Source: Minisyncoccota bacterium
GTDB taxonomy: Bacteria; Patescibacteriota; Minisyncoccia; UBA6257
Length of the DNA stretch: 64,000 bases
Assembly (NCBI GenBank): GCA_028695015.1
Contig: JAQVJR010000001.1
Location: forward strand, 33,645-97,644
Direction of reading: 5' to 3'
Under the pieces are notes generated by a model. It was not told the DNA's origin. It saw only the letters and a program-made list of their open reading frames with translations, and made no database searches. A program made the position numbers and the translations under genes. Positions 3,396-54,695 of the stretch are shown piece after piece. Positions within the stretch are counted from its first letter, which is position 1, and every line of letters begins with the position of its first letter.

Positions 3396-3440
3396 AAAAA
3401 CCTTTATTCTTATTATACAGAAAAAAGAGTTTAATTAAAA

Positions 3441-3540
3441 TAAAAAAAATGCTGCCGCTTCTGGCAAGCCAAAAACGACAGCATTATTAGTATAGCAAAT
3501 CTTAAAACCTTGTCAAGTCTTTTGTGGATAACTTAAGAAA
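3441..3540 (-). promoter_or_regulatory. conserved intergenic module copy 4 (hairpin 3449-3485; -10 3489-3494; -35 3511-3516; upstream-gene terminator 3546-3568)
   Basis: Read directly from sequence. Confidence 0.6.
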
Positions 3541-3586
3541 TACAAAACAGGGCTAAAAAGCCCTGTTTTTATCCAATTTCTAATCT

Positions 3587-5824
3587 TTAAACTCTTTTTC
3601 CTCTAAAGATAAAATAAGCTAAGCCACCTAAGGCTAAAACAGCTAATAAAGCTATTATGGCTCCTTTATTAGTTGCTGCTTCTTCTTCGGTTTCTTCTAG
3701 TTCTATTGTTTCTATATCTTCAGTTTCTAAAATTTCCATTACTTCTTCTTCCTCTTCTGGTTCTTGCTCAGAACTAACAGGAGTATCTAAAACATCTCCT
3801 TCTGGCACTGAACCATCATCAGCTAAGGCAATAGATTCTCCTAAAACCAATCCTTCACCTAAGCCAAAACATGTTTCATCAGAAATATCTGGTTTCATTT
3901 CAGGACAAAAGATATTATTAATTGCCCATCTGGTAGTTCTATAAACATAACCAGTAGCCATTTCTTCTGAAGACAAACATCCATTAGCAACCCAAGGAGC
4001 TAAAATATCATCCTTGAGCATGGTTTGGAATGTTTTTACTGCATTAAATGTATCTAAATCATAAATTCCATTAACATCTAAATTCAATCCCAAATATCCA
4101 TTTAAGAAGATTTGGAGTTTTCTAACTTCAAATGGATCATTATTAGCTCCATATTGAATGTATTCATGTAGATAAGGAACACAAGCAACACCAGCTACAA
4201 TACCCTCATCTCTTATGGTAGATTCACCTGCTATAGTACCTGATGAAAAACCTCCGCCTCCACCTCCGCCACCACCAGTAGGAGTTCCTCCAGATTCTTC
4301 GGTTTCTGTGTTAGATTGCTCTTCAGGTGGCTCAACACAACGATATACTTTAAGGTCTAAACTTCCTGTATTATCATCCATAGCTCCTTGGTCTTGATAA
4401 GAATTATACCAAGAATTGTACCAATCAGAAATGACAAAACTAACATTTACTTCTTCTTCTCCACTAATATGATAAGCTTTTTGGTATATATGTTCTGAAT
4501 TATAATCCCCCCAAGTAACTACCCCCATTTTGCCGGTTCCCATATCAGAAAGAAGTGATAACACTCCACGATATGGATTTCCTTTAATGCCTACGTCATC
4601 TCTTGGTATTGTTTTCCAACTATCTTTAGTGCCATAGCCTGCATCTGCTTTTTTATTCTCCTCTTTGCCACTATATTTATACACTCCAGAAACCTCAAAA
4701 AGATAATCGCCTGGATTTAAATCTATATTTTGTCCAATGCTATCTTGAGAATCAATATTTATTTCTTTAAACGGCTCTTCTTCTCTCTTGGTCCCTGACG
4801 GACAATCATGGTTTCCATTATACACAGGAACTAACTTGCACGTTTCCGTACAAAAATTACTTCCATCTTCAGCAACTCCTTCAAGCCCATCACATTCTTC
4901 ATCTCCTTCTTTTTTTCCATTACCACATTCTCCTGCTGCTTCTTCTGGCACTTCTAATACATTATAAGCTATACAATAAACATTTTCAGGCCATTGTGAA
5001 GTGTCGTTTCCTAATTGTATAAATTCTTTATTATCACCATTAACTGCATCCTTATAACAACGAAGAGCTGCAAATTTAGTTGCTCCTTCCATTGCTGGGC
5101 TATTATTTAAATCTTCACTAACCCATAATTGACCACCTTCAGTTAGTTGGTTTTGTTGTTCTGGTTTTAGTTCAGAAAAAGAAATGGGTTCATTAGAATT
5201 TACAGTGCTAACATTTGTTTCTTGTTCTTCATCTGTAGAAATTATAAATTGCCAGCCTCTTGCTAAATAGCAAACTCCAGGAATCTCATCTGGATCAACT
5301 GGCTTACCATTATTGTATGAACTGGGAAAACTATTTTCTTGATAATTAGCAAACTCTGTATATTTTTCCCCAGTAGCATCTAAGTGCTCTGCATTAGCAT
5401 TTCCATTAATATCTCCCCAAGATGGACATATCACTTTTATAAAATGAAAACTGGAGTTTATTGTTTCAGACGATCCATTGTCTCCTCCTGAACTTTCGCC
5501 ACAATACCCATGCTCGTGACAATGATTATGTTCTTGTCCTTGTCCTTGTCCTTGTCCTTGCCCTTGTCCTTGCCCTTGTCCTTGTCCTTGTCCTTGTCCT
5601 TGTCCTTGTCCTTGCCCTTGTCCTTGCCCTTGTCCTTGCCCTTGTCCTTGTCCTTGCCCTTGTCCTTGCCCTTGTCCTTGCCCTTGTCCTTGTCCTTGTC
5701 CTTGCTTATTCCCTGCTTCTATTATCCCTGGCTTCAACATCAATCCATTAGTAATTAACAAACTTAATACTATTACAATTGCAAATGTTTTTGTAAGAAA
5801 TTTTTTGTTCATATTTTTTTTCAA
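3587..5824 (-). CDS. large secreted surface protein: (GQ)32 repeat, Myxococcus-type Cys-rich repeat, peptidoglycan-binding domain, poly-Gly, acidic tail, C-terminal TM anchor
   Basis: 745 aa with signal peptide. A 32x Gly-Gln run comes from the CCTTGY hexanucleotide array. CGNGKKEGDEECDG…C…C resembles the Myxococcus Cys-rich repeat. LQIFLNGYLGLNLDVNGIYDLDTFNAVKTFQ resembles PG_binding_1. There is a GGGGGGGGG run, an EEEEE-rich tail and a C-terminal hydrophobic helix ending RGKRV. Confidence 0.7.
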   Translation of the reverse strand: MKKNMNKKFLTKTFAIVIVLSLLITNGLMLKPGIIEAGNKQGQGQGQGQGQGQGQGQGQGQGQGQGQGQGQGQGQGQGQGQGQGQGQGQGQGQGQGQEHNHCHEHGYCGESSGGDNGSSETINSSFHFIKVICPSWGDINGNANAEHLDATGEKYTEFANYQENSFPSSYNNGKPVDPDEIPGVCYLARGWQFIISTDEEQETNVSTVNSNEPISFSELKPEQQNQLTEGGQLWVSEDLNNSPAMEGATKFAALRCYKDAVNGDNKEFIQLGNDTSQWPENVYCIAYNVLEVPEEAAGECGNGKKEGDEECDGLEGVAEDGSNFCTETCKLVPVYNGNHDCPSGTKREEEPFKEINIDSQDSIGQNIDLNPGDYLFEVSGVYKYSGKEENKKADAGYGTKDSWKTIPRDDVGIKGNPYRGVLSLLSDMGTGKMGVVTWGDYNSEHIYQKAYHISGEEEVNVSFVISDWYNSWYNSYQDQGAMDDNTGSLDLKVYRCVEPPEEQSNTETEESGGTPTGGGGGGGGGFSSGTIAGESTIRDEGIVAGVACVPYLHEYIQYGANNDPFEVRKLQIFLNGYLGLNLDVNGIYDLDTFNAVKTFQTMLKDDILAPWVANGCLSSEEMATGYVYRTTRWAINNIFCPEMKPDISDETCFGLGEGLVLGESIALADDGSVPEGDVLDTPVSSEQEPEEEEEVMEILETEDIETIELEETEEEAATNKGAIIALLAVLALGGLAYFIFRGKRV
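5531..5706. repeat. hexanucleotide microsatellite (CCTTGY)n, ~30 units, encoding (GQ)32 on the minus strand
   Basis: Perfect or near-perfect tandem array. Confidence 0.9.
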
Positions 5825-5850: not shown

Positions 5851-6330
5851 TTATTTTTTAAATTTATAGACAAATAAATAAGATATAGCACCTATGCCTA
5901 TTATCCACCACCAAGTAGAAATACCAATGTTTTCTTTATATGCCTGTGCCATTAATTTTTCAGAAGCTGAAAATTCTAGTTCTTCCTCCATTTCTGGGTT
6001 TTTTTCTTGAATTTCTGTTTCTAATACAGTAGTGGGCGTTATGTCAATTATTGTTGTAGTTGTAGGCTTAGTAGTCGTTGTAGTAGGCTCAAGCGTAGTT
6101 GGGGAAGGAATAGGAACAGGGTTTATAACCCCGCAAGTGCAAGAAGGACTATAGGTGCCATCATTACAAACATATCTCCCAACTGATGAGTCACAATGAG
6201 ATACTCCGCCATGCCAAGAACAACAACCTCTTTTAGCATCAACATCATTTATTAAAAATAACAAAGAACAAATTATTATTACTAAAAGTGATAATAATTG
6301 TAAAAATTTTCTATGTTTAATCAAATTCAT
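5851..6330 (-). CDS. small Cys-rich secreted protein with Thr/Pro linker and C-terminal TM anchor
   Basis: 159 aa with signal peptide, a CCSWHGGVSHCD…C…C.C head, a PTTTTTKPTTTT linker, an acidic stretch and a WWWIIGIGAISYLFVYKFKK anchor. Lies 26 nt upstream of 3587..5824, so they are probably co-transcribed. Confidence 0.6.
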   Translation of the reverse strand: MNLIKHRKFLQLLSLLVIIICSLLFLINDVDAKRGCCSWHGGVSHCDSSVGRYVCNDGTYSPSCTCGVINPVPIPSPTTLEPTTTTTKPTTTTIIDITPTTVLETEIQEKNPEMEEELEFSASEKLMAQAYKENIGISTWWWIIGIGAISYLFVYKFKK

Positions 6331-6540
6331 TATATTTACTAAAATCTGAAATAATTAAATGCATAGAAAGCAGAACAGTCTTTTAATTAATCATTAAGGA
6401 AATTAAAATCACTTTTAATAGATCTATTATCCCATCATGAACTATTAGGAGGATTTCTGATATGAGAAAAAACACAAACACTAATCTTCCTGCAATATTC
6501 TTTTTTTAATCCCTAATAGTTGATCAAGTAGTTAATTAAA

Positions 6541-6692
6541 AAAATTGACGAATAACGTCAATTTAACTAATCTGCCTTAAGAGCAGATAAACTTTTGTAT
6601 TTGTTTAAAAGAGAGCATCCCACCATTTTATTGTTTATCTACTTAGTAGTCTCCCCTGGGCCTTTGCAGGCCCAGAGGAGAACCCCACCGTG
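6541..6692 (-). ncRNA. candidate small RNA 2 (promoter TTGACA 6721-6726 / TATCAT 6699-6704; terminator hairpin 6545-6561 + U-run)
   Basis: About 150-nt minus-strand unit containing a 13-bp GC-rich stem (6648-6683, UCUCCUCUGGGCC/GGCCCAGGGGAGA) in an AT-rich gene desert. No match to SRP, tmRNA or 6S motifs that I can recognise. Confidence 0.4.
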
Positions 6693-6946
6693 CTTACATG
6701 ATACTCTATTATTTTTTGTTTGTCAAGTCCTTGTCAAGTTTTTAAATAAAAAACAAATTTGTCAAATTTAAGGAAATTTTTAAAAATTTAATTTTAAATT
6801 TAAAAAATAATTCTTTAAAGTTATTTTAAAGATCCTTATCGGAAAATTTTATTATTCAATGCTTAATAATTCAATTTATAAATCTTAATTATTATATTAT
6901 CAATCAATAACAAGATTTTCTTTAAAACAATCAAGGAATTAGGTTT

Positions 6947-7039
6947 AAAAAAATGGCGTTTTTCAACGCCACTTTAAAACCTCCAAAATTTTGGAAAATA
7001 GGTTTTATATAAGCTCTTCCGGAAAAGCTTACCCCACTA
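6947..7039 (-). ncRNA. candidate small RNA 1 (promoter TTGACA 7068-7073 / TATACT 7046-7051; terminator GGCGTT-GAAAA-ACGCC 6955-6970 + U7)
   Basis: About 95-nt unit with internal palindromes AAGCUUUUCCGGAAGAGCUU and UCCAAAAUUUUGGA. Its promoter is a partial copy of the conserved module promoter. Confidence 0.4.
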
Positions 7040-7111
7040 CAAGATAGTATATATGATAAATAAAAATTGTCAAGTCTTTTATCCACAATCTCATAATTTC
7101 ACAAACTATGG

Positions 7112-7212
7112 AATAAAAAATGCTGTCGCCCTTGGCAAGCCAAAAACGACAGCATTATTAGTATATCAAATCCAAAACCCTTGTCAAGTCTATTGGGGAT
7201 AACTTTTAAAAT
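7112..7212 (-). promoter_or_regulatory. conserved intergenic module copy 5 (hairpin 7119-7156; -10 7160-7165; -35 7182-7187; terminator 7216-7242)
   Basis: Read directly from sequence. What follows downstream is another promoter and a candidate sRNA, not a protein gene. Confidence 0.6.
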
Positions 7213-7247
7213 GAAAAAGGGACTATATTATATAGTCCCTTTTGATT

Positions 7248-7922
7248 TTAATAGTACTCAATACTTTGTGCTGTTACATAGACCACCCTCTTAGTTGGAG
7301 AGAGTTTAATCTTCACTTGTTTAGCTTTCTTTTCTCCAGCTAATCCTTCCTTCAAGTCTACACATTTGACCACTTGTGAATCATCTTCAAAGGTTATCAT
7401 AAAGCAAACCTTTTCCACTGTCACTTTTTCTCCCTTGAAGTTTTGCATTTCAAAATCTACAAATACATCACCCCAGGTCAAATAGCAACAACAGGGTCCA
7501 GAAGGAGGACAAATTGGACAAACACACTCTGGGCATTCATCACAAATACACTCTGGACATTCATCACATATACACTCTGGGCAATCTTCACAAACAGGAC
7601 AATCTGGGCAACAAGAATCACAAGCAGGGCAAGTTGGACAACAAGAATCACAAGCGGGGCAATTACATGGTGGACATGTAGGTGGTGGACAAGGAGGATA
7701 GCAATAACCACATCTTGTCATCAAATCCCTAGGTAAATCACCATTAGCAACTCTTGTTATGCCTTTTGAAGAGTCACAAGAAACCTCTTGCTCAAAGCCA
7801 GTTACCCAAACTTCTACATCTTCTGTTATTGAAGGAATGATTGATCCACTCTTACATCCAGTTAAGAACAATACCATTAAAACCATTGCTAAGATTAACA
7901 ATCTTTTTCTCATTTTTTTCAC
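7248..7922 (-). CDS. lipoprotein with extreme Cys/Pro-rich tandem-repeat core (CPxC / ICDECPEC units)
   Basis: 224 aa with lipobox LFLTGC. A 75-aa stretch contains about 40 Cys (CYPPCPPPTCPPCNCPACDSCCP…CDECPECICDECPECICDECPECVCPICPP…CCC). Consensus promoter and AGGAGGTG SD lie upstream. Confidence 0.65.
   Translation of the reverse strand: MKKMRKRLLILAMVLMVLFLTGCKSGSIIPSITEDVEVWVTGFEQEVSCDSSKGITRVANGDLPRDLMTRCGYCYPPCPPPTCPPCNCPACDSCCPTCPACDSCCPDCPVCEDCPECICDECPECICDECPECVCPICPPSGPCCCYLTWGDVFVDFEMQNFKGEKVTVEKVCFMITFEDDSQVVKCVDLKEGLAGEKKAKQVKIKLSPTKRVVYVTAQSIEYY
7523..7670. repeat. tandem 24-nt repeats (x3) plus ~33-nt repeats (x2) encoding ICDECPEC / CDSCCPxCPAC units
   Basis: acactctgggcattcatcacaaat, acactctggacattcatcacatat and acactctgggcaatcttcacaaac in tandem. 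Confidence 0.8.
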
Positions 7923-7969
7923 CTCCTTTCATTTTTTAATTTTCAAGTTACTAGTTCAAATATGTCTAA

Positions 7970-7998
7970 ATTATATATCATTTATACAATTTTGTCAA
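7970..7998 (-). promoter_or_regulatory. consensus sigma70 promoter of lipoprotein gene (TTGACA-N17-TATAAT) followed by AGGAGGTG SD
   Basis: Plus-strand tgtcaa at 7993-7998 and attata at 7970-7975. Confidence 0.6.
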
Positions 7999-8046
7999 TA
8001 TATAAGGTTTAAATTAAAAAGGGAAGACTTATCTTCCCCTTATTTG

Positions 8047-9213
8047 TTATTTAGTAAAATTATCCTGAATTACTTGTAAAACTGGTTTATCCCAGATAGC
8101 CCAACTCCGATCATTTTCTTCAGATTTAGCTGTTGGCCAATAAAACCAGAACGCTCCTGCCCACCAACTTTCTTTCTCAAACACGTTAAATAATGCTTGA
8201 GTCGCTAAAATTTGTTCTTCTGGACTATAAACCTCTCTGCCTTTTTCTCCCCTTGGAACTTTATCCTCACTATTCCAAGGCTCCATACTGGTGCCTTCTG
8301 TACTTCGATATCCAATTTCAGAAAATATCATCTTTTGGTTAAAGGTTTTTGCTATTGTTTCTAATTGCTTTACTATATTTTGATTACCATGCCTGCTTTC
8401 AAACCAAGCCCTTTCTATATCTTCTAAACTTGGATTAAGCTTTTTAGTCAAATCAAAATAAGGAGCCATAGAGATAATATCTAGATCTTTTAACCAGTCT
8501 AAAGTTAATGTTCTTTTAAAAGTTATCTCTTGCCACCAACAATTAAGCTTAGCGGTTATTAATCCCTGATATTGTTCTTTTATCTTGTAGATAAGATGCC
8601 TCCATCTCTGATCTTCTGGCCAAAGAGAATGAAATTCATTGCCTATGCAAAAAAGTTCCACCCCACAAGCCTCTGCTAAACCAGCATAATAAATTAAGGC
8701 ATTACCATAAGAAATAAACCATTGATTAATATCTTTTGGCTCTAAGCTAGCAACATAATCCCTATCCTCTCCTACGATAAGATCTGGTAATAAAGAAACT
8801 TTTTTTCCAGCTTGATGAATCATCGTAATCATGCTTTCTAAAGTTAAATCTTGAGTTTGGTCATATATTACTTGATTAGAGTCTAAAGTCTTTTGATACA
8901 AAAAAAACCTTAATTGAACATAGTTAATTTCTTGAATTTTCAAAAGGTTTTCTAAAGCATTAAAGGCTTCTAAGCTAGAATATGGATGAGGATCTGGATA
9001 AAAATCTATTCCCCTAAATTCTAAATCATTTTCCTTTATCAACCCGGTTTCTTTAGCCAATGACTCTATTACAAATTCTTCAGTGTAAATATAGTAATCT
9101 TTTTCATCTCTTAATTTAAGAAAAAAAGAAAATGTGTTCTTGATTTCTATTAAAGAAATAACCAAACAAATTAAGATTACCATAGTTATCACTATTCTTT
9201 TTTTAACATCCAT
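8047..9213 (-). CDS. membrane-anchored clan GH-A glycoside hydrolase (GH5/GH113-like)
   Basis: 388 aa with N-terminal TM. CIGNEFH (acid/base NE) and FSEIGY (nucleophile E) are spaced as in (beta/alpha)8 GH-A enzymes, and it has an aromatic-rich C-terminus. Confidence 0.55.
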   Translation of the reverse strand: MDVKKRIVITMVILICLVISLIEIKNTFSFFLKLRDEKDYYIYTEEFVIESLAKETGLIKENDLEFRGIDFYPDPHPYSSLEAFNALENLLKIQEINYVQLRFFLYQKTLDSNQVIYDQTQDLTLESMITMIHQAGKKVSLLPDLIVGEDRDYVASLEPKDINQWFISYGNALIYYAGLAEACGVELFCIGNEFHSLWPEDQRWRHLIYKIKEQYQGLITAKLNCWWQEITFKRTLTLDWLKDLDIISMAPYFDLTKKLNPSLEDIERAWFESRHGNQNIVKQLETIAKTFNQKMIFSEIGYRSTEGTSMEPWNSEDKVPRGEKGREVYSPEEQILATQALFNVFEKESWWAGAFWFYWPTAKSEENDRSWAIWDKPVLQVIQDNFTK

Positions 9214-10610
9214 TATTGATCACCTCCTTGCTCTAATTGTCGCAGAAGATTAATGTCATAAACCGTTCTCGGACGAGATATGTTTTGATCGCCATAATGA
9301 ACTGTTTTAGTTTCTTGCCATGATTTTACTCCTAAGCTATACAAACTGCACCAAAGCCAATGAAATCCAAAAATCCAATACACTGGTAAAAACAAAGCTC
9401 TTTTCCAGCCTCTTTTTTTAATACTATTGTAAAAAAGAAAACCAAAAAAAGTACTTGTCCAAATTAACCAAATCCAACCAGTAATATTAAAAATGGACAC
9501 TTGATTGGTTAAATAGTAAAACCAATAAAGAAAATTACTTGCCCACCAAGCAAACACTGATAAAGGGCTTAAACGATAAGCATAATCTAACCAATTGCCA
9601 AATCTATGCAAATTATCCCAAGTCACTCTTAAATGCCCTTTAATCCATCGGGACCTTTGTTTCATAACTCCACTCCAAGAAGGCGGTTTTTCATCATAAA
9701 CCACAAGATTATCTGCAAAGATAATTTTCTTATTTTCTAGAGTTAATCTAGTAAATAATTCAAAATCTTCTACTAAAGAATTAGTCCATCCTTCTGCTTC
9801 TTGTAAGACTCTAGTTCGGATAAATATTCCTGTGCCTGCTAAAAAACAAGGCAATTTAAAAACATCTCTTCCTCGCCATGAAATAGAAGAAAAAGTATCA
9901 TATTCCACTTCTTGAAGAAATGTCAAAATTGAAGAATACATATTGCTTGTTGAAAGCTCTGCCTGAATTGCATCAATTTCTTCATTTTTGAAATAAGCCA
10001 TTGCCCGGTTAAACAATTTTTTATCCTTTATCCTATTATCAGTATCAAATTGAGCAATAATCTTCCCTTTTGCCGCTTTTAATCCTTCATTTAAAGCTAA
10101 GGCTTTGCCTGATTTACGAGTTTGAATATCTAATACCTTAATCCTTTCATCACTTACAGATTTTGCATTCCTAATAGTATTATCAGTACAATTATGGGCC
10201 AAAACCAGAATTTCCAAGTTTTTGTATTCTTGACAAATTAAATCATTCAGAATGTTTCTTATGACTTTCTCCTCATTATGAGCCGGAATCATTACTGAAA
10301 TCAAAACTGAATCATCTTCTTCTATCTTATCTTCTTTTTTATTATAAAAGATACTGGCCACTCCCATTAAGACCCAAATAAACATACTGAGATACATTAA
10401 GACTACACATAGCAACAAGAAAAAAGGAAACTGAATATCCAAGGAAAAAAAAGCAAAACGATTACTTAAAACCAACCCTTTGCCTACCCCAAATACTTGT
10501 AAGACAGTCATCAGTAAAATAGAGATAACATATGCTGACAGAACAGTTGTAGCACAAGCATAAACAAAATCTTCTAAAGAAAAAATCCCTAATTTTCTAA
10601 GAATTTTCAC
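9213..10610 (-). CDS. processive family-2 glycosyltransferase (membrane polysaccharide synthase; D,D,D,QxxRW type)
   Basis: 465 aa with multiple TM helices, a PAHNEE…FDTDN (DxD) motif and a QRSRW motif typical of cellulose/chitin/PNAG-synthase-like GT2 enzymes. Confidence 0.75.
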   Translation of the reverse strand: MKILRKLGIFSLEDFVYACATTVLSAYVISILLMTVLQVFGVGKGLVLSNRFAFFSLDIQFPFFLLLCVVLMYLSMFIWVLMGVASIFYNKKEDKIEEDDSVLISVMIPAHNEEKVIRNILNDLICQEYKNLEILVLAHNCTDNTIRNAKSVSDERIKVLDIQTRKSGKALALNEGLKAAKGKIIAQFDTDNRIKDKKLFNRAMAYFKNEEIDAIQAELSTSNMYSSILTFLQEVEYDTFSSISWRGRDVFKLPCFLAGTGIFIRTRVLQEAEGWTNSLVEDFELFTRLTLENKKIIFADNLVVYDEKPPSWSGVMKQRSRWIKGHLRVTWDNLHRFGNWLDYAYRLSPLSVFAWWASNFLYWFYYLTNQVSIFNITGWIWLIWTSTFFGFLFYNSIKKRGWKRALFLPVYWIFGFHWLWCSLYSLGVKSWQETKTVHYGDQNISRPRTVYDINLLRQLEQGGDQ

Positions 10611-11310
10611 TTATATCTTCCTCCTTTATTAATTTAACTTTACCAAAATAAGCATTATCAACAAAAACTTGACCTATTCCTTTAAATTCTAAGACTGGAT
10701 CCCCTTTCCAAGCATCTGATGGAGAATAAACTAATAAGCCAATATATTTCCAATCTCCATAACTGCTGCCAGAAATCCAAGGGCCATAAGAAGCATATCT
10801 AGGATACCTGCCATCACCTATTCGAAAAAACTGATGAGCTAATCTAAATCCCCCTTCCTGAATTTCATACTTTACCCAAAATGACACATAGTATAATTCT
10901 TCTATTTCTACATTGGGTTTAAAAAATATATCAGGCACTGCAATAGCCCCATGATCCATTTTACTAAACCCTTGAATCATAAAAGATCGTCTTCCCATAT
11001 AACTATCCTTAGAGCATACAAAAGACACATCTCCAAAGAATATTTCTCCACCCCAAGGATAAGGCCTAAACCCATTAATGTCTGAAAAAACATCTAAAGA
11101 TTTGGGCACAAATTCAAAAGAATTGTTTTCAAACATGGCTTCACTTGAATGACTAGGTCTTGGCAAAATACAATAACCTTCAGGCAACTTAACACTATCT
11201 AGTAAAATCGGGGCATTAGCTCTTAGTTCTGCTGCTCCATAATTTAAAACAGGAATAAAGCTTAAAAACACCAATAGCAAAAAAGACAACAATACTAAAA
11301 ATCTTTTCAT
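10597..11310 (-). CDS. secreted hypothetical protein, first gene of the GT2/GH module
   Basis: 237 aa with signal peptide. Overlaps the GT2 start by 14 nt, consistent with an operon. Confidence 0.5.
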   Translation of the reverse strand: MKRFLVLLSFLLLVFLSFIPVLNYGAAELRANAPILLDSVKLPEGYCILPRPSHSSEAMFENNSFEFVPKSLDVFSDINGFRPYPWGGEIFFGDVSFVCSKDSYMGRRSFMIQGFSKMDHGAIAVPDIFFKPNVEIEELYYVSFWVKYEIQEGGFRLAHQFFRIGDGRYPRYASYGPWISGSSYGDWKYIGLLVYSPSDAWKGDPVLEFKGIGQVFVDNAYFGKVKLIKEEDISENS

Positions 11311-11425
11311 TTCTTTCTCTCCTTTCTTTTTTATTTAATTTTCAAAGTTCTTAATTGAGTTATAATATATCTTTATTATAAGTTTGTCAAGGATTAAAGA
11401 TATAAAACTTCCTAAATAATATAAG

Positions 11426-11525
11426 GTAAAAAAATGCTGCCGCTTCTGGCAAGCCAAAAACGACAGCATTATTAGTATATCAAATCTTAAAACCTTGTCA
11501 AGTCTATTGTGGATAACTTAAAACC
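11426..11525 (-). promoter_or_regulatory. conserved intergenic module copy 6 (hairpin 11433-11470; -10 11474-11479; -35 11496-11501; terminator 11521-11542)
   Basis: Read directly from sequence. Confidence 0.6.
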
Positions 11526-11547
11526 AATCTAATATTGGTTTTAATAG

Positions 11548-11970
11548 TTAATTATCCAACAATTCTTGCTCTCTCTGTATTATCCTTTCAGTAAGCTCCA
11601 TATAATGCTCCATATCTTCCATTAACAAATCAGTATAGGCGCTAAAGTTATCCTCAGTTACTCCATATTTGCGATACAAATCTTCATGATGTGATAATAA
11701 ATTCAGAGGATCTGTCTGCATATAATAAGAGAGTTGGGCTACTATTTCAACATAAACATCATCTGTCATAGCGCCTATGCCTCCACTAGATGCTTCAGAA
11801 GAAGCACCTGAATCTTCATGAGATGTTTCAGAAGGCATTTCAGATGATTCACTAATGCCAGGGATCTCTGTACCAACTCTATCTTTTGTTGATTGCCAAA
11901 CAACAATCCCTATCACTATTATTAAAATAATTGCAACAATTAACCAAATCTGTTTTGAATTAATTTTCAT
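11548..11970 (-). CDS. signal-anchored protein with Ser/Glu-rich low-complexity region
   Basis: 140 aa with N-terminal TM. Flanked by module copy 6 and a terminator hairpin. Confidence 0.5.
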   Translation of the reverse strand: MKINSKQIWLIVAIILIIVIGIVVWQSTKDRVGTEIPGISESSEMPSETSHEDSGASSEASSGGIGAMTDDVYVEIVAQLSYYMQTDPLNLLSHHEDLYRKYGVTEDNFSAYTDLLMEDMEHYMELTERIIQREQELLDN

Positions 11971-14348: not shown

Positions 14349-15512
14349 ATGGCTAAAACAAAACAAGTCTATCTGGATTATGCCGCCACCACTCCTGTAG
14401 ATCCTCAGGTTTTAAAAACAATGATGCCTTATCTTAAGGAAAAATTTGGCAACTCAGTTTCTTTGTATAAATTAGGTCAAGAATCTAAAAAAGCCTTAGA
14501 AAAAGCTCGTTTAATAATTACTCAAGCTATTAATGCGAAAAACAAGGAAGAAATAATTTTTACCAGCTCAGCAACAGAAAGTAATAATTTAGCCTTAAAA
14601 GGAATAGCTTTTGCTAATCAAAAAAAATCACATATTATTATCTCTGCGATTGAGCATGATTGTGTTTTAAACAGTACCTCTTGGCTTCAAAAACAAGGTT
14701 TTCAAATCACCCAAATCAAACCTGACAAATATGGATTAATAAACCCAAAGGATATAGAAAAAGCCATTAAAAAAAACACTATCTTAATTTCCATTATCCA
14801 TGGCAATAATGAAATTGGCACTATCCAACCCATAGAACAAATCGGAAATATCTGTGAAAAAAAGAAAATATATTTTCATACTGATGCGGTTCAAACCTTT
14901 GGCAAAATTCCCATTGATGTTCAGAAAATGAAAATTGATTTATTAACTGCCTCTTCTCATAAGATTTATGGACCTAAAGGCGCTGGCTTATTATATATCA
15001 AAAAAGACATAAGAATAGATCCTTTGCTCCATGGTGGCAATCAAGAATTTGGTCTTCGTTCTTCCACTGTTAATGTTCCTGCCATTATTGGTTTTGGCAA
15101 AGCAACAGAAATATGTTTAAAAAAAATGAAATCTGAATCAAAAAGATTAACTCAATTAAGAGATTATTTAATTCAAGGAATTTTAAAAAAAATACCCCAA
15201 GCGCATCTTAATGGTCATCCAATAAAACGATTGCCTAATAATGCTAATTTTTGGTTTGCTTTTATTGAAGGCGAATCAATTGTGACCAGCCTTGATCAAT
15301 ATGGCATTGCCGCCTCAACTGGCTCTGCTTGTTCTTCAGAAAAATTAGAGCCTAGCCATACACTTTTAGCTTGTGGATTATTGCCAGAATGCGCTCATGG
15401 TTCTTTAAGATTAACTCTTGGTCGATGGACAACAAAAAAAGACATTGATTATGTTTTAAATACCTTACCTAAAATCATTAAAAATTTAAGAAAAATATCA
15501 CCTTTCAAATAA
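14349..15512 (+). CDS. iscS: cysteine desulfurase (class V aminotransferase, IscS/NifS-like)
   Basis: 387 aa with an SSHKIYGPKGAGLLY PLP-lysine region and a C-terminal GSAC…-type active-site Cys region. Confidence 0.85.
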   Translation: MAKTKQVYLDYAATTPVDPQVLKTMMPYLKEKFGNSVSLYKLGQESKKALEKARLIITQAINAKNKEEIIFTSSATESNNLALKGIAFANQKKSHIIISAIEHDCVLNSTSWLQKQGFQITQIKPDKYGLINPKDIEKAIKKNTILISIIHGNNEIGTIQPIEQIGNICEKKKIYFHTDAVQTFGKIPIDVQKMKIDLLTASSHKIYGPKGAGLLYIKKDIRIDPLLHGGNQEFGLRSSTVNVPAIIGFGKATEICLKKMKSESKRLTQLRDYLIQGILKKIPQAHLNGHPIKRLPNNANFWFAFIEGESIVTSLDQYGIAASTGSACSSEKLEPSHTLLACGLLPECAHGSLRLTLGRWTTKKDIDYVLNTLPKIIKNLRKISPFK

Positions 15513-15997
15513 TGTATAATAAAAAAGTATTACAACATTTTAAAAGCCCCCATAACTTTGGCAAGATACAAAATGCTGATGGCCAAGGCCAAGTGGGCAA
15601 TGTGGTTTGCGGAGATGTAATGAATCTCTATCTTAAGATAGGGAAAAATAAAAAAGGCGAAGAAATTATTGAAGATGTTAAATTTGAAACTTATGGTTGT
15701 GTGGCCGCAATAGCCACTAGCAGCATTATCACTGATTTAGCTAAAGGAAAAACCATTAAACAAGCTATTGGATTAAATAAGGATAGCATTATTGACACTC
15801 TAGAAGAATTACCAGCAATTAAAATCCATTGTTCTGTCCTAGCTATCGATGCCTTAAATGAAGCCATATATAATTATCTTCATAAAAACAAAAGAGACAT
15901 TCCAAAAGAATTACAAAAACGTCATCAAAGAATAGAAAAAGAAAAGCAAATCATTGAGAAAAAATACGCTGATTGGATCAATTCAAGCAAAGATTAA
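15512..15997 (+). CDS. iscU: Fe-S cluster scaffold (IscU/NifU N-terminal domain)
   Basis: 161 aa with VCGDVM and YGCVAAIATS motifs. Start overlaps the iscS stop. Confidence 0.8.
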   Translation: MYNKKVLQHFKSPHNFGKIQNADGQGQVGNVVCGDVMNLYLKIGKNKKGEEIIEDVKFETYGCVAAIATSSIITDLAKGKTIKQAIGLNKDSIIDTLEELPAIKIHCSVLAIDALNEAIYNYLHKNKRDIPKELQKRHQRIEKEKQIIEKKYADWINSSKD

Positions 15998-16004
15998 AAC
16001 AATA

Positions 16005-17087
16005 ATGAAAGATTTACAAAATAAGAAAATAGTTGTCGGCTTATCAGGTGGCATTGATTCTGCTATTGCTTTAATTTTATTAAAACAACAAGGGTGGCAA
16101 CCTATTGGTGTTTTTTTAAAATTACCTCTTTGGCAAAACAATACTAATGCTTTTTCAAAAAACATTTATCAATCAGAACAATCTTTAAAAACAGCCATTG
16201 ATATTTGTAAAAAACTAGATGTTCCTTTTTATACTATTGATGCTAAAAAAGAATTTGAAAAAGAAGTTGTTGAATACTTTGTAAAAGAGTGGAAAAGCCT
16301 AAGAACGCCTAATCCTTGTGTTGTTTGTAATCCTAATTTTAAATTCAAACAATTAATCAATTGGGCTAAAAAACATAAAATTCAATACATTGCCACTGGC
16401 CATTATGCTAAATTAAAATTAAACCCCAAAACCAAATTATATGAATTATTTAGAGCCAAAGACAAAACCAAAGACCAAACCTATGATCTTTGTCTCTTGC
16501 CTCAAAAATGGCTTAAGCAAATCATTTTCCCTTTAGGAGATTATACTAAACAACAAGTTTATCAAATAGCTAAAAAACAAGGATTAAAAACCTTTTCTCA
16601 AAAAAAAGAAAGCCAGGATTTCTGTTTTATTGCTGGACAATCTCTTTGTCCCTTTTTAAAAGAAAAAATAGGAGAAAAACAAGGATTAATTACTGATTTA
16701 GAAAACAATGTTTTATCTAAACATCAAGGATTGCATTTTTATACCTTAGGCCAAAGAAAAGGTATTAAACTTGCTAATGGACCATATTTTGTCTTTGGTT
16801 TTGATAAAAAAAGAAATACCCTTTTAGTAACTAAAAATAAAAAAGACCTCTTTAAAAAAGAAATCTTAATTCATCCTTATCAATTAATTTCTGGACAAAA
16901 GATTCAAAAACCTATCAAAGCCCAAGTTCAAATCCGTTATCAACAAAAACCTTGTTCAGCCAAATTAATCCCTCAAAAAAACAAATTAAAAATAATGTTC
17001 TCAAAACCTATTCTTGCTCCTTGCCCAGGCCAATTTGCTGTTTTCTATGAAAAAAACAAATGCCTTGGTGGTGGTAGAATAATTTGA
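16005..17087 (+). CDS. mnmA: tRNA-specific 2-thiouridylase
   Basis: PP-loop motif VVGLSGGIDSAIA. Start taken at MKDLQNKK (internal ATG) to avoid overlapping iscU; the ORF track starts at 15954. Confidence 0.85.
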   Translation: MKDLQNKKIVVGLSGGIDSAIALILLKQQGWQPIGVFLKLPLWQNNTNAFSKNIYQSEQSLKTAIDICKKLDVPFYTIDAKKEFEKEVVEYFVKEWKSLRTPNPCVVCNPNFKFKQLINWAKKHKIQYIATGHYAKLKLNPKTKLYELFRAKDKTKDQTYDLCLLPQKWLKQIIFPLGDYTKQQVYQIAKKQGLKTFSQKKESQDFCFIAGQSLCPFLKEKIGEKQGLITDLENNVLSKHQGLHFYTLGQRKGIKLANGPYFVFGFDKKRNTLLVTKNKKDLFKKEILIHPYQLISGQKIQKPIKAQVQIRYQQKPCSAKLIPQKNKLKIMFSKPILAPCPGQFAVFYEKNKCLGGGRII

Positions 17088-48971: not shown

Positions 48972-50534
48972 TTAGGAGATTAATCCCCTTAAGAATCCTT
49001 GGAGTTTATCAGGTAGAACAGGAATGATTTCTTGCCACCAAGGAAGGTTAACTGCTTGGACTTCTATGTAGTCTAATTCAGTACCAAGAGTATCTTCCCA
49101 AGTAACACAAGTATTTTCATTGTCTTTGTCATAACAGGCTTTTAATTGATATGTATAGACACCTGGTGTTGTGATATGGAAAGACTTTTCATGATCAATA
49201 GAGCCAACGGTCACATTACCACTAAGAGTTTCATTATCTCCACAATCTTTATCTCCTAATTTACAAGTGATTTCACCCCATTTACAATCACTATTGGTAG
49301 ACCACTTTGCTTCATAATCAACTCCTGTCCAGACATGATTGGGTAATTCAAATTTGTTAATGGAGCATGTGGGGGATGGGAGTGGTGGAGGTGATTTTTT
49401 GCAACTAGCTTGACAAGAACTTGATGAAGAATACTTTCCTGAAGCATCTGGATAGCATTGCCCAGTACTTGTATTGCAAGAATAACGAGTAGAAGGAGTT
49501 GGTTTTTTACAGTTGGCTTGACAAGAACTTAATGAGGTGTAGGGCCCAGAAGGATCTTTAGAGCATTGCCAAGTGGTAGTATTACAAGAATAACGAGTAG
49601 AAGGAGTTGGTTTTTTACAGTTGGTTTGGCAAGAGCTTAATGTAGAATATGACCCTGAGGAACTTTCAGTGCATTGCCAAGTGGTGGTATTGCAGGCATA
49701 ACGAATAGCAGGAGGTGGTAGCTCAGGGGTGGGTGTTCCATTTTCACAATCACTATCTTTTTGGCATTGATCGTCATTAATTGACCGACATGTTTTTGCA
49801 TTTTTTAAACAATGCCAATCTCCCCATAAACCAAGGTATTGCTTATTACAATAATTACAAAACGTACAATTTGCCAAACATGCTTCTTCGGTATAAAAAG
49901 TTGTTTTTAGTGTTTTTTTGTAAACACAGGTCCCATATTTTTGCCCTGAAGAATGTTCGCAATACCAACCAGATTCTTTTCCAAAAGGATCTTCTGTGGT
50001 TGGAACACTAGATCCTCCGCATTGCTCAGGCCCCGTACATTCATCTATGCAAGATCCGGGTGTCAACTCAGATGTAGCTTTGCATTGAGTCCCCAAACAT
50101 TTAAAACATTGCACACCTGAGCAATCACTCTGCCATTCACAAGAATTTGAACAAGGCGAATTAAAAGTTTTTGATTCACATTTACCAAATGAACAAGTCT
50201 TACAGGTATATTTTTCACAAGCTGAACAATTGGTAGTGCATGGTTCTTTTGAATCTATAGTCATGCATTCTCCTCCCATACATTTATGGCATATATAATA
50301 CCCCGATGGATCAACTGCACCTTGCTTTTTAGTAGTGGTTGTCGTAGATGCTGCAGAACATTTTCTTTGACATTCTTCTAAAGTTTTATAATCTCCATCA
50401 TCATAGGTATCCCTATAACATGTTCCGGTTTGCCAATTGCAAACATATGGCTTCTTCGCACCTAAAGCTACTGAATTAGTAAAAAGAATTAAAAAGAAAC
50501 TTATTAATAATATTGTATTTATTCTTTTATTCAT
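48972..50534 (-). CDS. secreted Cys-module protein (tandem ~36-aa TWQC…SSCQxNCKK modules + conserved 135-aa C-terminal domain), cassette copy 1
   Basis: 520 aa with signal peptide and more than 60 Cys. Three near-identical 108-nt DNA repeats. C-terminal 135 aa are about 90% identical to 51740..52951. Confidence 0.7.
   Translation of the reverse strand: MNKRINTILLISFFLILFTNSVALGAKKPYVCNWQTGTCYRDTYDDGDYKTLEECQRKCSAASTTTTTKKQGAVDPSGYYICHKCMGGECMTIDSKEPCTTNCSACEKYTCKTCSFGKCESKTFNSPCSNSCEWQSDCSGVQCFKCLGTQCKATSELTPGSCIDECTGPEQCGGSSVPTTEDPFGKESGWYCEHSSGQKYGTCVYKKTLKTTFYTEEACLANCTFCNYCNKQYLGLWGDWHCLKNAKTCRSINDDQCQKDSDCENGTPTPELPPPAIRYACNTTTWQCTESSSGSYSTLSSCQTNCKKPTPSTRYSCNTTTWQCSKDPSGPYTSLSSCQANCKKPTPSTRYSCNTSTGQCYPDASGKYSSSSSCQASCKKSPPPLPSPTCSINKFELPNHVWTGVDYEAKWSTNSDCKWGEITCKLGDKDCGDNETLSGNVTVGSIDHEKSFHITTPGVYTYQLKACYDKDNENTCVTWEDTLGTELDYIEVQAVNLPWWQEIIPVLPDKLQGFLRGLIS
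49392..49715. repeat. three tandem ~108-nt direct repeats (36-aa Cys modules)
   Basis: Units at 49392-49499, 49500-49607 and 49608-49715 are about 85-95% identical. Confidence 0.8.
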
Positions 50535-51552: not shown

Positions 51553-51612
51553 GATTTTAAAAGTACTAAAAACTATCTTCATTATACATCTTTAGGTTTA
51601 ATTTGTCAAGAA
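51553..51612 (-). promoter_or_regulatory. promoter + 5'UTR block (TTGACA-N17-TATAAT) shared with 54635-54695
   Basis: About 60 nt nearly identical at the two sites. -35 at 51604-51609, -10 at 51581-51586. Confidence 0.55.
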
Positions 51613-51739: not shown

Positions 51740-52951
51740 TTAGGAGATTAATCCTCTTAAGAATCCTTGGAGTTTATCAGGCAGAACAGGAATGATTTCT
51801 TGCCACCAAGGAAGGTTAACTGCTTGGACTTCAATGTAGTCTAATCCAGTGCCTAGAGTATCTTCCCAGATATCACAAGTATCTTCATTGTTTTTATCAT
51901 AACAGGCTTTTAATTGATATGTATAGACACCTGGTGTTGTGATATGGAAAGACTTTTCATGATCAATAGAGCCAACTGTTACCTCACCACTAAGATTTTC
52001 GTTATCTCCACAATCTTCATCTCCTAATGTACAAGTAATTTCACCCCATCTACAATCATTACTGGTAGACCACTTTGCTTCATAATCAACTCCTGTCCAG
52101 ACATGATTAGGTAATTCAAACTTGTTAATGAAGCATGTGGGAGATAGGGGTGGTGGAGGTGGCGGTGGAGTACCCTTACAATCTTGGTTAGAACTACAAC
52201 GAGTATAATTAGTAATTCTTGAGCACGAAGAAAGATTAAATGATTTAGACTGACATTTTTCTCCAATACAAACATTGCATTGTATGGAAGAAGTGGGCGT
52301 GGTAGAGGTTTTACACTGACTATCAGAACTACATAAAGTATATCCTGTTACCTGAGAACATGAAGAAACATTAAATGATTTAGATTGGCATTTTTCTCCA
52401 ACGCAGACATTACAAGATATAGAAGAAGGGATAGAAACTGGTTTTCCACAATCACTATCTTTTTGACATTCATCAGTAGGCCTAGTTCCTGTCCAAGATG
52501 CCGGCTTGCAATATAATGTATCTCTATTCCCTGTTAACCATGCCCATGAACCTGGTAAAGGAGTCCTACATTTATTATAAGTTCCACGTGACTGGCACCT
52601 AGCTAAGCATTCAGCCTCTGTAGAATAGTCAACCCTCTTTTGATTTCTGACAAAAACACACCTTCCATCATCTAAACAATTCCATCCATCTTCTGTGTCA
52701 TCAGGAAATACTGATCCAGGGCCAGAATCAGGGCTAGTTCCTGGACCAAAACCGCTATTATCATCACAAGCTGCCTCTTCTATACAGTCTTTCCAACATT
52801 GCTGTTTCCCATTTATAATTTCACATATAGGAGGGCCATAAAGAGTACAATCACCACATGTTATTATTCCAAAAATATTTTCAGGAGAAATAATTAATAA
52901 AATTAAACAAATCAAAGCAAATATTGTTGTAAATATTATTTTTTGTTTCAT
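51740..52951 (-). CDS. secreted Cys-module protein with conserved C-terminal domain, cassette copy 2
   Basis: 403 aa. C-terminal domain is near-identical to copy 1. N-terminal modules differ (two ~45-aa SISCNVCVGEKCQSKSF…SSDSQCK repeats). Confidence 0.7.
   Translation of the reverse strand: MKQKIIFTTIFALICLILLIISPENIFGIITCGDCTLYGPPICEIINGKQQCWKDCIEEAACDDNSGFGPGTSPDSGPGSVFPDDTEDGWNCLDDGRCVFVRNQKRVDYSTEAECLARCQSRGTYNKCRTPLPGSWAWLTGNRDTLYCKPASWTGTRPTDECQKDSDCGKPVSIPSSISCNVCVGEKCQSKSFNVSSCSQVTGYTLCSSDSQCKTSTTPTSSIQCNVCIGEKCQSKSFNLSSCSRITNYTRCSSNQDCKGTPPPPPPPLSPTCFINKFELPNHVWTGVDYEAKWSTSNDCRWGEITCTLGDEDCGDNENLSGEVTVGSIDHEKSFHITTPGVYTYQLKACYDKNNEDTCDIWEDTLGTGLDYIEVQAVNLPWWQEIIPVLPDKLQGFLRGLIS
52190..52450. 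repeat. two tandem ~135-nt direct repeats (45-aa Cys modules)
   Basis: agattaaatgatttagactgacatttttctccaatacaaacattgca… repeated with substitutions. Confidence 0.7.
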
Positions 52952-54634: not shown

Positions 54635-54695
54635 AATTTTAAAAGTACTAAAAACTACCTTAATTATACATCTTTAGGTTTAATTTGTCAATATC
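54635..54695 (-). promoter_or_regulatory. second copy of shared promoter + 5'UTR block
   Basis: -35 at 54686-54691, -10 at 54663-54668. Confidence 0.55.

Follow-up and report, generated by a model that had tools for sequence, protein, structure and literature searches.

The core of antibody hinges (CPPCP or CPRCP, as in IgG1 and in the repeated IgG3 hinge) consists of two parallel identical chains whose polyproline-type double strand is bridged by a disulfide rung at every cysteine, an in-register arrangement that does not depend on Cys parity. In Chlamydia, the disulfide cross-linked outer membrane complex includes OmcA, a small Cys-rich lipoprotein (PMC2811131, PMC6812762). In Peribacteria, which belong to the Candidate Phyla Radiation (CPR), large Cys-rich extracellular proteins that vary between strains have been proposed to serve attachment or rigidity (PMC4736985). 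Lipoproteins are also encoded by phages, where they are classic superinfection-exclusion factors (PMC3952083, PMC9586334). Here, we describe a gene on the minus strand of a 64-kb stretch of contig JAQVJR010000001.1 (hereafter the window), whose single open reading frame (ORF) at 7248..7922 encodes a predicted lipoprotein with a repetitive, Cys-rich insertion in a small beta-sandwich. A large part of bacterial diversity belongs to the CPR, and very little is known of the cell surfaces of these bacteria, their phages and their contacts with hosts.

A predicted lipoprotein with an optional Cys-rich loop

Judging from the sequence, the ATG at 7913 is the most likely start codon and gives a product of 221 amino acids (aa); the GTG at 7922 is part of the Shine-Dalgarno (SD) sequence AGGAGGTG. 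This product is identical to a database protein, P0001 in our set (hypothetical protein PHG13_00200 of a Candidatus Pacebacteria metagenome-assembled genome, MAG). To be called a lipoprotein, a sequence had to combine a positively charged n-region, a hydrophobic h-region and a lipobox [LVI][ASTVI][GAS]C within its first ~35 residues (PROSITE-style pattern). The N-terminus MRKRLLILAMVLMVLFLTGC satisfies this pattern with an LTGC lipobox, which identifies the product as a predicted Sec/signal peptidase II type lipoprotein of a Paceibacteria (CPR) bacterium, in agreement with a preliminary description of this DNA made from its letters. Tat export and Fe-S cluster binding were considered and rejected: the n-region reads MRKR followed by LLIL, and no RR-x-FLK twin-arginine motif is present.

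AlphaFold2, run on a 22-sequence alignment, predicts with very high confidence (predicted local distance difference test, pLDDT, 91-97) a beta-sandwich of which the strands at residues 33-46 and 52-56 stand ahead of the Cys/Pro block and five others (145-220) behind it, and in which both ends of the block converge on one loop. The mature part is thereby modelled as one small immunoglobulin (Ig)-like beta-sandwich with an optional acidic Cys array in one loop. G148 and V210 are invariant in the 22 sequences, Q42 is nearly invariant in the family, and a VTGFEQEV motif is conserved in the region of residues 21-67. A Foldseek search with the sandwich against the PDB and a viral library gave nothing below E 0.001, and the fold resembles only the generic Ig/ApaG/DUF1425/YjhA-like sandwich. 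Assignment to DUF4352 (PF11611) was rejected, as a single member of the 22 matches it (E 0.015), under the Pfam threshold, and the structural likeness is generic.

Five relatives were found among 5.8 billion clusters. A profile search of 1.84 billion representatives yielded 29 matches, about 20 of them true members, and a second profile search added nine more, for about 30 relatives overall. Essentially all of them possess a lipobox, and neither a Pfam domain nor an informative name is attached to any. P0001 itself matches no Pfam family at E<=10 and no NCBIfam model, neither P0001 nor its homologue P0005 matches PHROGs, and PADLOC returned no match. Four homologues of 117-131 aa (P0015, P0025, P0041 and P0042) consist of the sandwich without any block, and the block is therefore an optional insertion in one loop.

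Several other candidates were set aside. P0026 and P0029-P0033 have a block-like composition only and no score against the block-free profile, and were rejected as family members. One of these, P0026 (456 aa, not a lipoprotein), contains a very similar CPECPDCPQCPDIPEC array without similarity to the sandwich; a Cys repeat of this type may have arisen in, or moved into, another protein independently. A degenerate DNA pattern recovered two true loci (L019 and L020) together with three chance matches, which were discarded: one terminase-like ORF matched twice (L017 and L021) and a secreted protein of large size (L018). The search of viral contigs for related loci with P0005 alone found nothing. 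We found no description of the family in the literature on Cys-rich CPR lipoproteins and lipid-anchored metallothioneins. What is new is a tiny unannotated family of Ig-like lipoproteins in which a (C-x-x)n loop can expand; Cys-rich lipoproteins as such, and CPxC ladders of the hinge type, are already known. The preliminary description had considered a lipid-anchored protein of this sort unusual; the array is indeed extraordinary, but the lipid anchor has a precedent in Chlamydia OmcA (PMC2811131).

Composition and turnover of the Cys/Pro block

The block comprises 76 residues with 28 Cys (37%), 19 Pro (25%), 12 Asp and Glu and no Lys, Arg or His, and the whole protein has 32 Cys. The array of ~75 residues with CPxC motifs that had been described is thus present, with fewer Cys than the 40 or so first counted; likewise, the 24-nt repeat period was recovered at the DNA level, but the second period is 30 and not 33 nt (table below). 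The motifs are CPPC, CPAC, CPTC, CPEC, CDEC and CDSC, the spacings include CxxC, CC and CxC, and aromatic residues are almost absent. Across the 25 block-bearing members, the block measures 33-88 residues and contains 11-30 Cys, with a predominant Cys-to-Cys spacing of 3. The first inner residue of 205 CxxC motifs is Pro in 48%, Glu in 29%, Asp in 10% and Gln in 6%, and the second position is taken by Glu, Thr, Asp, Ser or Ala; the blocks are practically free of basic residues and His. Motifs at the two block ends, CP.CDSCC and PCC(C)-Y-L-x-W-G-D, are conserved. Searching the PDB with the sequence of the block alone gave chance matches only (E above 2).

The conserved junction motifs, and the need for both block ends to meet at the same sandwich loop, would suit an intramolecular disulfide-knotted mini-domain, a hairpin ladder serving as a rigid stalk or spike of fixed fold. 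The Cys counts speak against such a structure, being even in 14 blocks and odd in 11 (10 and 15, respectively, for the mature proteins). P0034 and P0035 differ solely by three extra CEECQECEQ units that add nine Cys, so that near-identical alleles three repeats apart flip parity. Moreover, block length varies as described above, and AlphaFold2 gives the block no fold (pLDDT <50). As neither the number nor the parity of the Cys is conserved, a fixed intramolecular disulfide fold is unlikely, and we give it hardly any credence. Given the Cys period of 3 and the many Pro that follow Cys, the insert probably adopts an extended form and presents its thiols on a single face.

The closest allele, L008, has flanks 93-95% identical to those of the window, and its sandwich region differs by a synonymous divergence (dS) of 0.13. 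The ratio of nonsynonymous to synonymous divergence (dN/dS) in that region is 0.17, which indicates purifying selection. In the block, by comparison, the two alleles are separated by in-frame indels only (18, 21, 15, 6 and 6 nt), and the proportion of synonymous differences (pS) reaches 0.75, against 0.12 in the sandwich. The exclusively in-frame indels and the high pS therefore point to repeat turnover: the Cys array evidently expands and contracts through in-frame gain and loss of repeats. The gene is also intact elsewhere, as its DNA is 100% identical, without frameshift, across 8 independent assemblies of the strain. This identity, together with the purifying selection on the sandwich, indicates that the ORF is a real gene and not a product of chance. 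Opposite-strand ORFs within it (e.g. 7443-7736 on the plus strand) were dismissed as by-products of the repeat.

Since the block is optional in the family and varies by simple gain and loss of repeats, it might be a neutral low-complexity expansion, that is, a slippage-prone repeat drifting in a tolerant loop while function resides in the beta-sandwich only. However, the period-3 Cys, the acidity and the exclusion of Lys, Arg and His are kept in very divergent members and in the phage copies, all indels are in frame and the junction motifs are conserved, and we regard neutral drift as improbable.

A separate observation concerns L020 (1189-1843), a distant homologue 3' of rplL in a MAG labelled Saccharibacteria. 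A frameshift within its Cys repeats results in two overlapping ORFs that match P0024 and P0014; the locus could be a pseudogene, be subject to phase variation or have been misassembled within the repeat.

An allelic cassette and a variable surface island

The sister genome L001 (MAG STE_70) is ~94% identical to the window across rplJ-rplL and across a 917-nt stretch on the other side of the lipoprotein gene. Computed in 60-nt steps, identity to L001 is 95-97% over the promoter (8041-7922) and 88% in the signal peptide, only 60-75% in the coding regions of the mature sandwich and 13-45% in the Cys block, and again 87-100% directly behind the stop codon. Synonymous sites in this island are saturated (pS 0.77-0.88), and dN is 0.24. 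The mature coding part thus behaves as an allelic cassette with sharp bounds and deep divergence, surrounded by conserved DNA. Its sharp bounds and the synonymous saturation are the mark of an allele that is old or was imported and that recombination has swapped in, rather than of simple acceleration. A diversity-generating retroelement was considered and rejected, as no part of the gene recurs within the 64-kb window and the adjacent 917 nt have no long ORF.

The neighbouring glycan genes (8064-11308 in the window, 2305-4253 in L001) differ between the two genomes as well: a 237-aa secreted protein, a GT2 glycosyltransferase and a GH113 enzyme are encoded here, a GT2 glycosyltransferase and a polysaccharide deacetylase there. 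The flanks on both sides of these differing genes are ~94% identical, which suggests a swappable surface-glycan island. The region formed by the lipoprotein and glycan genes behaves as a variable surface island.

Homologues on chromosomes and phage-like contigs

At least three phage-like contigs encode homologues (P0005, P0040 and P0017). The P0005 gene lies directly behind recT and near genes for an exonuclease, a methyltransferase, a DnaD-like loader, DnaB and RusA; the P0040 contig has portal and Mom genes, and the P0017 contig has a DnaB-like gene and small ORFs in common with the P0005 and P0040 contigs. Stripped of its block, P0005 still obtains 37 bits from a block-free family profile built without it. 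The scaffolds encoded by the phage genes are therefore truly homologous to that of the family, and their insert occupies the same site. Chromosomal members are found 3' of rplJ-rplL in the window, L001, L002/L003, L020 and L026/L027; the block-less P0042 occupies a different site on a 550-kb contig. The neighbours in all contexts recovered are rplJ/rplL, small hypothetical genes, GT2, GH113 or polysaccharide deacetylase, secreted proteins and phage genes.

These contexts bear on the metallothionein-like role considered in the preliminary description. CPxC is the classic knuckle motif of rubredoxins and zinc ribbons, the capacity of the modular metallothioneins of fungi and ciliates scales with their repeats, and methanotrophs have an exported Cys-rich copper store, Csp1. 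An extracytoplasmic metal sink of this kind would chelate Zn, Cu, Cd or Fe at the membrane surface through its thiolates and Asp/Glu for detoxification, storage or capture, and repeat number would set its capacity. The block, with its 37% Cys, its CxxC, CC and CxC spacings and hardly any aromatics, conforms to this picture, and metal binding is indifferent to Cys parity and indels. An anoxic habitat would leave the thiols reduced, and 28 reduced thiols would take soft metals by simple chemistry, so that metal binding by the block is chemically plausible. However, besides the lack of Pfam and NCBIfam matches reported above, none of 22 members matches a metallothionein family at E<=1. Metal transporters beside the homologues had been suggested as worth looking for, and neither a transporter nor a metal-sensing regulator lies next to the gene in the window, L001-L003, L020, L022, L026, L027 or L031. 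In addition, the block has no Lys, Arg or His to balance its strong negative charge and is absent from some members, and a bounded divergent allele and a place in phage replication modules are unexpected for metal homeostasis. We hold a metal sink to be unlikely, though still a live rival.

The protein might also be a sacrificial surface thiol buffer of an oxygen-sensitive cell, with free Cys that scavenge oxidants or electrophiles or carry persulfide or polysulfide sulfur. The very dense thiols at the membrane surface, the strong expression signals and a function indifferent to parity and length would fit. But this proposal leaves the allelic island and the phage copies unexplained, and no partner reductase, thioredoxin-like or sulfur-transfer gene occurs in any context recovered, which makes it highly improbable in our view.

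Possible role at the cell surface

Among the roles first proposed (metal sequestration, redox buffering or a disulfide-rich structural role), the weight shifts toward a variable surface or recognition role, nearer to the last of these, because the insert is optional, its repeat number varies, the allelic island is bounded and phages have homologues. The family resembles a variable surface determinant more than it does a metallothionein, and allelic replacement and carriage by phages argue for recognition at the surface. We thus tentatively favour, as a possibility that still falls short of probable, a variable surface determinant whose thiol-rich loop would be cross-linked in register by disulfides or bridging metals and which would take part in phage or cell-surface recognition.

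Cross-links formed in register between identical neighbouring chains would be an architecture that tolerates arbitrary indels. They could be disulfide rungs, like those of the antibody-hinge CPxCP core, or soft-metal bridges under anoxia; metal bridging or free thiols would fit the absence of a constraint on parity and length just as well. The outcome would be a stiff projection or a dimer at the cell surface, zipped covalently or by metal. The chromosomal copy could then be a phage receptor or shield, or a protein for cell-to-cell contact, and the phage copies could be superinfection-exclusion or receptor-masking lipoproteins. Extracytoplasmic disulfides are plausible in CPR bacteria, as disulfide-forming MdbA-like oxidoreductases and VKOR are enriched in this group (PMC6744442).

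Several points weigh against a variable surface determinant of this kind. In several members (e.g. P0017), the block is poor in Pro, and the analogy with the hinge is weaker for this reason. As most CPR bacteria are anaerobes, disulfides may not form. The dN/dS is <1 wherever it is computable, and the synonymous saturation points to old or imported alleles, not to positive selection. The invariance of the gene in 8 assemblies makes it stable in the short term and therefore not a fast contingency locus. Finally, no similarity to known exclusion or defence families was detected in PHROGs or PADLOC.

A more specific proposal, which we consider unlikely but worth stating, is that the period-3 array forms a self-zipping rod of variable length, held by disulfides or bridging metals, that acts as a phage-recognition determinant of Paceibacteria cells. 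Hosts would keep deeply divergent cassettes by recombination, and phage copies would mask or replace the host protein, resulting in superinfection exclusion. If true, the host and phage proteins would form one of the first concrete receptor/exclusion pairs for CPR phages, built on an undescribed protein architecture. The family combines three signatures usual in recognition molecules, namely repeat-length polymorphism, a bounded divergent allele and phage-borne copies, and offers a short, easily expressed candidate for studies of CPR surface biology and phage interaction. If the array binds metal, it would be an unusual lipid-anchored thiolate sink.

Gene organization and genomic context

The features of the gene are collected in the following table.

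Features of the lipoprotein gene and of the intergenic cassette; positions refer to the window unless L001 is named
Feature	Position	Strand	Remark
Coding sequence, 221-aa prolipoprotein	7248..7913	minus	stop codon 7248-7250
Signal peptide with lipobox L-T-G-C, aa 1-20	7854..7913	minus	pattern match; predicted lipidation at Cys20
aa 21-67: short linker, first long beta-strand pair (aa 33-46), small hairpin, helix	7713..7853	minus	AlphaFold2 models
aa 68-143: acidic Cys/Pro period-3 block	7485..7712	minus	pLDDT <50 in both AlphaFold2 models
aa 144-221: five remaining strands of the Ig-like beta-sandwich (YLxWGD...ITFEDD...KRVVYV)	7251..7484	minus	pLDDT 91-97
Tandem DNA repeat, period 24 nt, 3.2 copies	7518-7594	minus	Tandem Repeats Finder
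Tandem DNA repeat, period 30 nt, 2.5 copies	7588-7662	minus	Tandem Repeats Finder
Shine-Dalgarno AGGAGGTG	7920..7927	minus	6 nt 5' of ATG 7913; read from the sequence
Promoter-like site TTGACA-N17-TATAAT	7970..7998	minus	12/12 match, sigma-70-type
Terminator-like hairpin	7215..7243	minus	right behind the stop codon; 13-bp stem and T-run; bidirectional
Terminator-like hairpin of the upstream GH113 gene	8018..8041	minus	sets the lipoprotein gene apart as its own unit
Intergenic cassette copies, window	7105-7229, 362-504, 11419-11549, 3434-3567, 1159-1314, 2034-2164	minus	
Intergenic cassette copies, L001	2080-2190, 4970-5083, 7921-8050, 8719-8859, 9567-9705		

The perfect promoter and the SD sequence named in the preliminary description are both in place, the former as a full match at 7998..7970; three perfect TTGACA-N17-TATAAT sites occur in the window, against 0.03 expected. 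From these promoter and SD signals, the gene is probably strongly expressed, and since hairpins stand on both sides of it, it is probably monocistronic.

The window has 31% G+C and contains an RNase P RNA, four tRNA genes, rplJ/rplL and further housekeeping genes such as nifS, nifU, mnmA, lepA, murJ, pgk and a gene for a class II aminoacyl-tRNA synthetase. It is chromosomal DNA of a CPR bacterium, and the identical lipoprotein was found in Paceibacteria MAGs. On the minus strand, the order of genes is rplJ, rplL, a 140-aa ORF, the 237-aa secreted protein, the GT2 glycosyltransferase, GH113 and the lipoprotein, followed by the ORF-free stretch of 917 nt and two secreted proteins, the first of 159 aa and the second of 745 aa, in which there is a long (GQ)n run. 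A functional tie to nifS-nifU-mnmA (14349-17087) was rejected, since these housekeeping genes occupy the opposite strand, with rplJL and two tRNA genes in between. At L002 (547-2160), in a related genome, a NifU homologue near rplJL carries an intein with a LAGLIDADG domain according to precomputed Pfam annotation.

The 159-aa protein (5851-6330, minus strand) is secreted or anchored, has a GCCSWHGGVSHC motif and a Thr/Pro-rich linker and matches no Pfam family. Its gene is 93-100% identical in DNA to that of L001, in strong contrast to the neighbouring lipoprotein gene. The 745-aa protein (3587-5824, minus strand), likewise without a Pfam match, contains a run of ~33 Gly-Gln dipeptides, His/Cys-rich motifs, a segment like the Myxococcus-type Cys-rich repeat and a C-terminal membrane anchor. 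Its ends are ~89% identical to the L001 homologue, and its central part is unalignable. Two further secreted Cys-rich proteins are encoded on the minus strand at 48972-50534 (520 aa, 50 Cys) and 51740-52951 (403 aa, 33 Cys); neither belongs to a Pfam family, and both fit the Cys-rich exoproteome reported for other CPR bacteria.

The 917-nt stretch (6331-7247) has no ORF above ~60 aa and is 93.7% identical to L001 4944-5863, a conservation like that of the genes for ribosomal proteins. A second promoter-like site lies within it (7073..7046, minus strand), Rfam gave no match at the gathering threshold, and the stretch may represent a long leader or a non-coding RNA not described before. An intergenic cassette of ~100 nt, nearly invariant, is repeated in the window and in L001. 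Its elements are, in order, a DnaA-box-like TTATCCACA, TTGACA-16-TATACT and, directly behind, a hairpin with a T-run, whose stem reaches up to 17 bp (GCTGTCG...CGACAGC); in one variant, the stem is preserved by a compensatory G-C to A-T change (GCTGTCA...TGACAGC). Every copy lies 5' of a gene, and the recognisable products are secreted proteins or an M16 peptidase. The cassette may be a regulated promoter with a leader or attenuator, or a family of small-RNA genes. Elsewhere, identical 29-nt perfect promoters (TTGACAAATTAAACCTAAAGATGTATAAT) stand 3 kb apart on the minus strand, at 51581-51609 and 54663-54691, and are probably part of another repeated regulatory cassette.

Comparison with known systems

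The lipoprotein block shares repeated C-P-x-C-P motifs with the antibody hinge. There is no homology between the two, and the block is a loop insertion in a bacterial lipoprotein, much longer (up to 30 Cys) and strongly acidic, in which some members have Glu in place of Pro behind the Cys; its oligomerisation is hypothetical. OmcA is, like the family described here, a lipid-anchored and very Cys-rich envelope protein, and is thought to act through intermolecular disulfides. Yet it has no sequence similarity to the family, no period-3 array and no beta-sandwich, and it belongs to a different type of envelope and a different lineage. Metallothioneins (SmtA/BmtA, MymT and the modular fungal and ciliate proteins) and Csp1 resemble the block in their Cys content above 30% and in their CxxC, CC and CxC spacings. 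Unlike metallothioneins, the family protein is lipid-anchored, holds its Cys within a folded domain, is rich in Pro and Asp/Glu without Lys or His, is hypervariable between strains, and has neither a profile match nor metal-homeostasis neighbours.

As for phage lipoproteins, Ltp of TP-J34 and Llp of T5 (PMC3952083, PMC9586334) are, similarly, small envelope-exposed lipoproteins encoded outside the phage structural genes. They differ from the family in fold and show no sequence or PHROG match to it; most family members are chromosomal, 3' of rplJ-rplL, and an exclusion function here is hypothetical. The DUF4352/YjhA-YcdA/MPT63-type and ApaG/DUF1425-type sandwiches give generic Ig-like scores, and none of them has a Cys-repeat insertion. 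Finally, the Peribacteria proteins belong to organisms of the same kind and are likewise secreted, Cys-rich and strain-variable, but they are ~1,600 aa long, are not lipoproteins and have no period-3 array, and no homology to them was detected.

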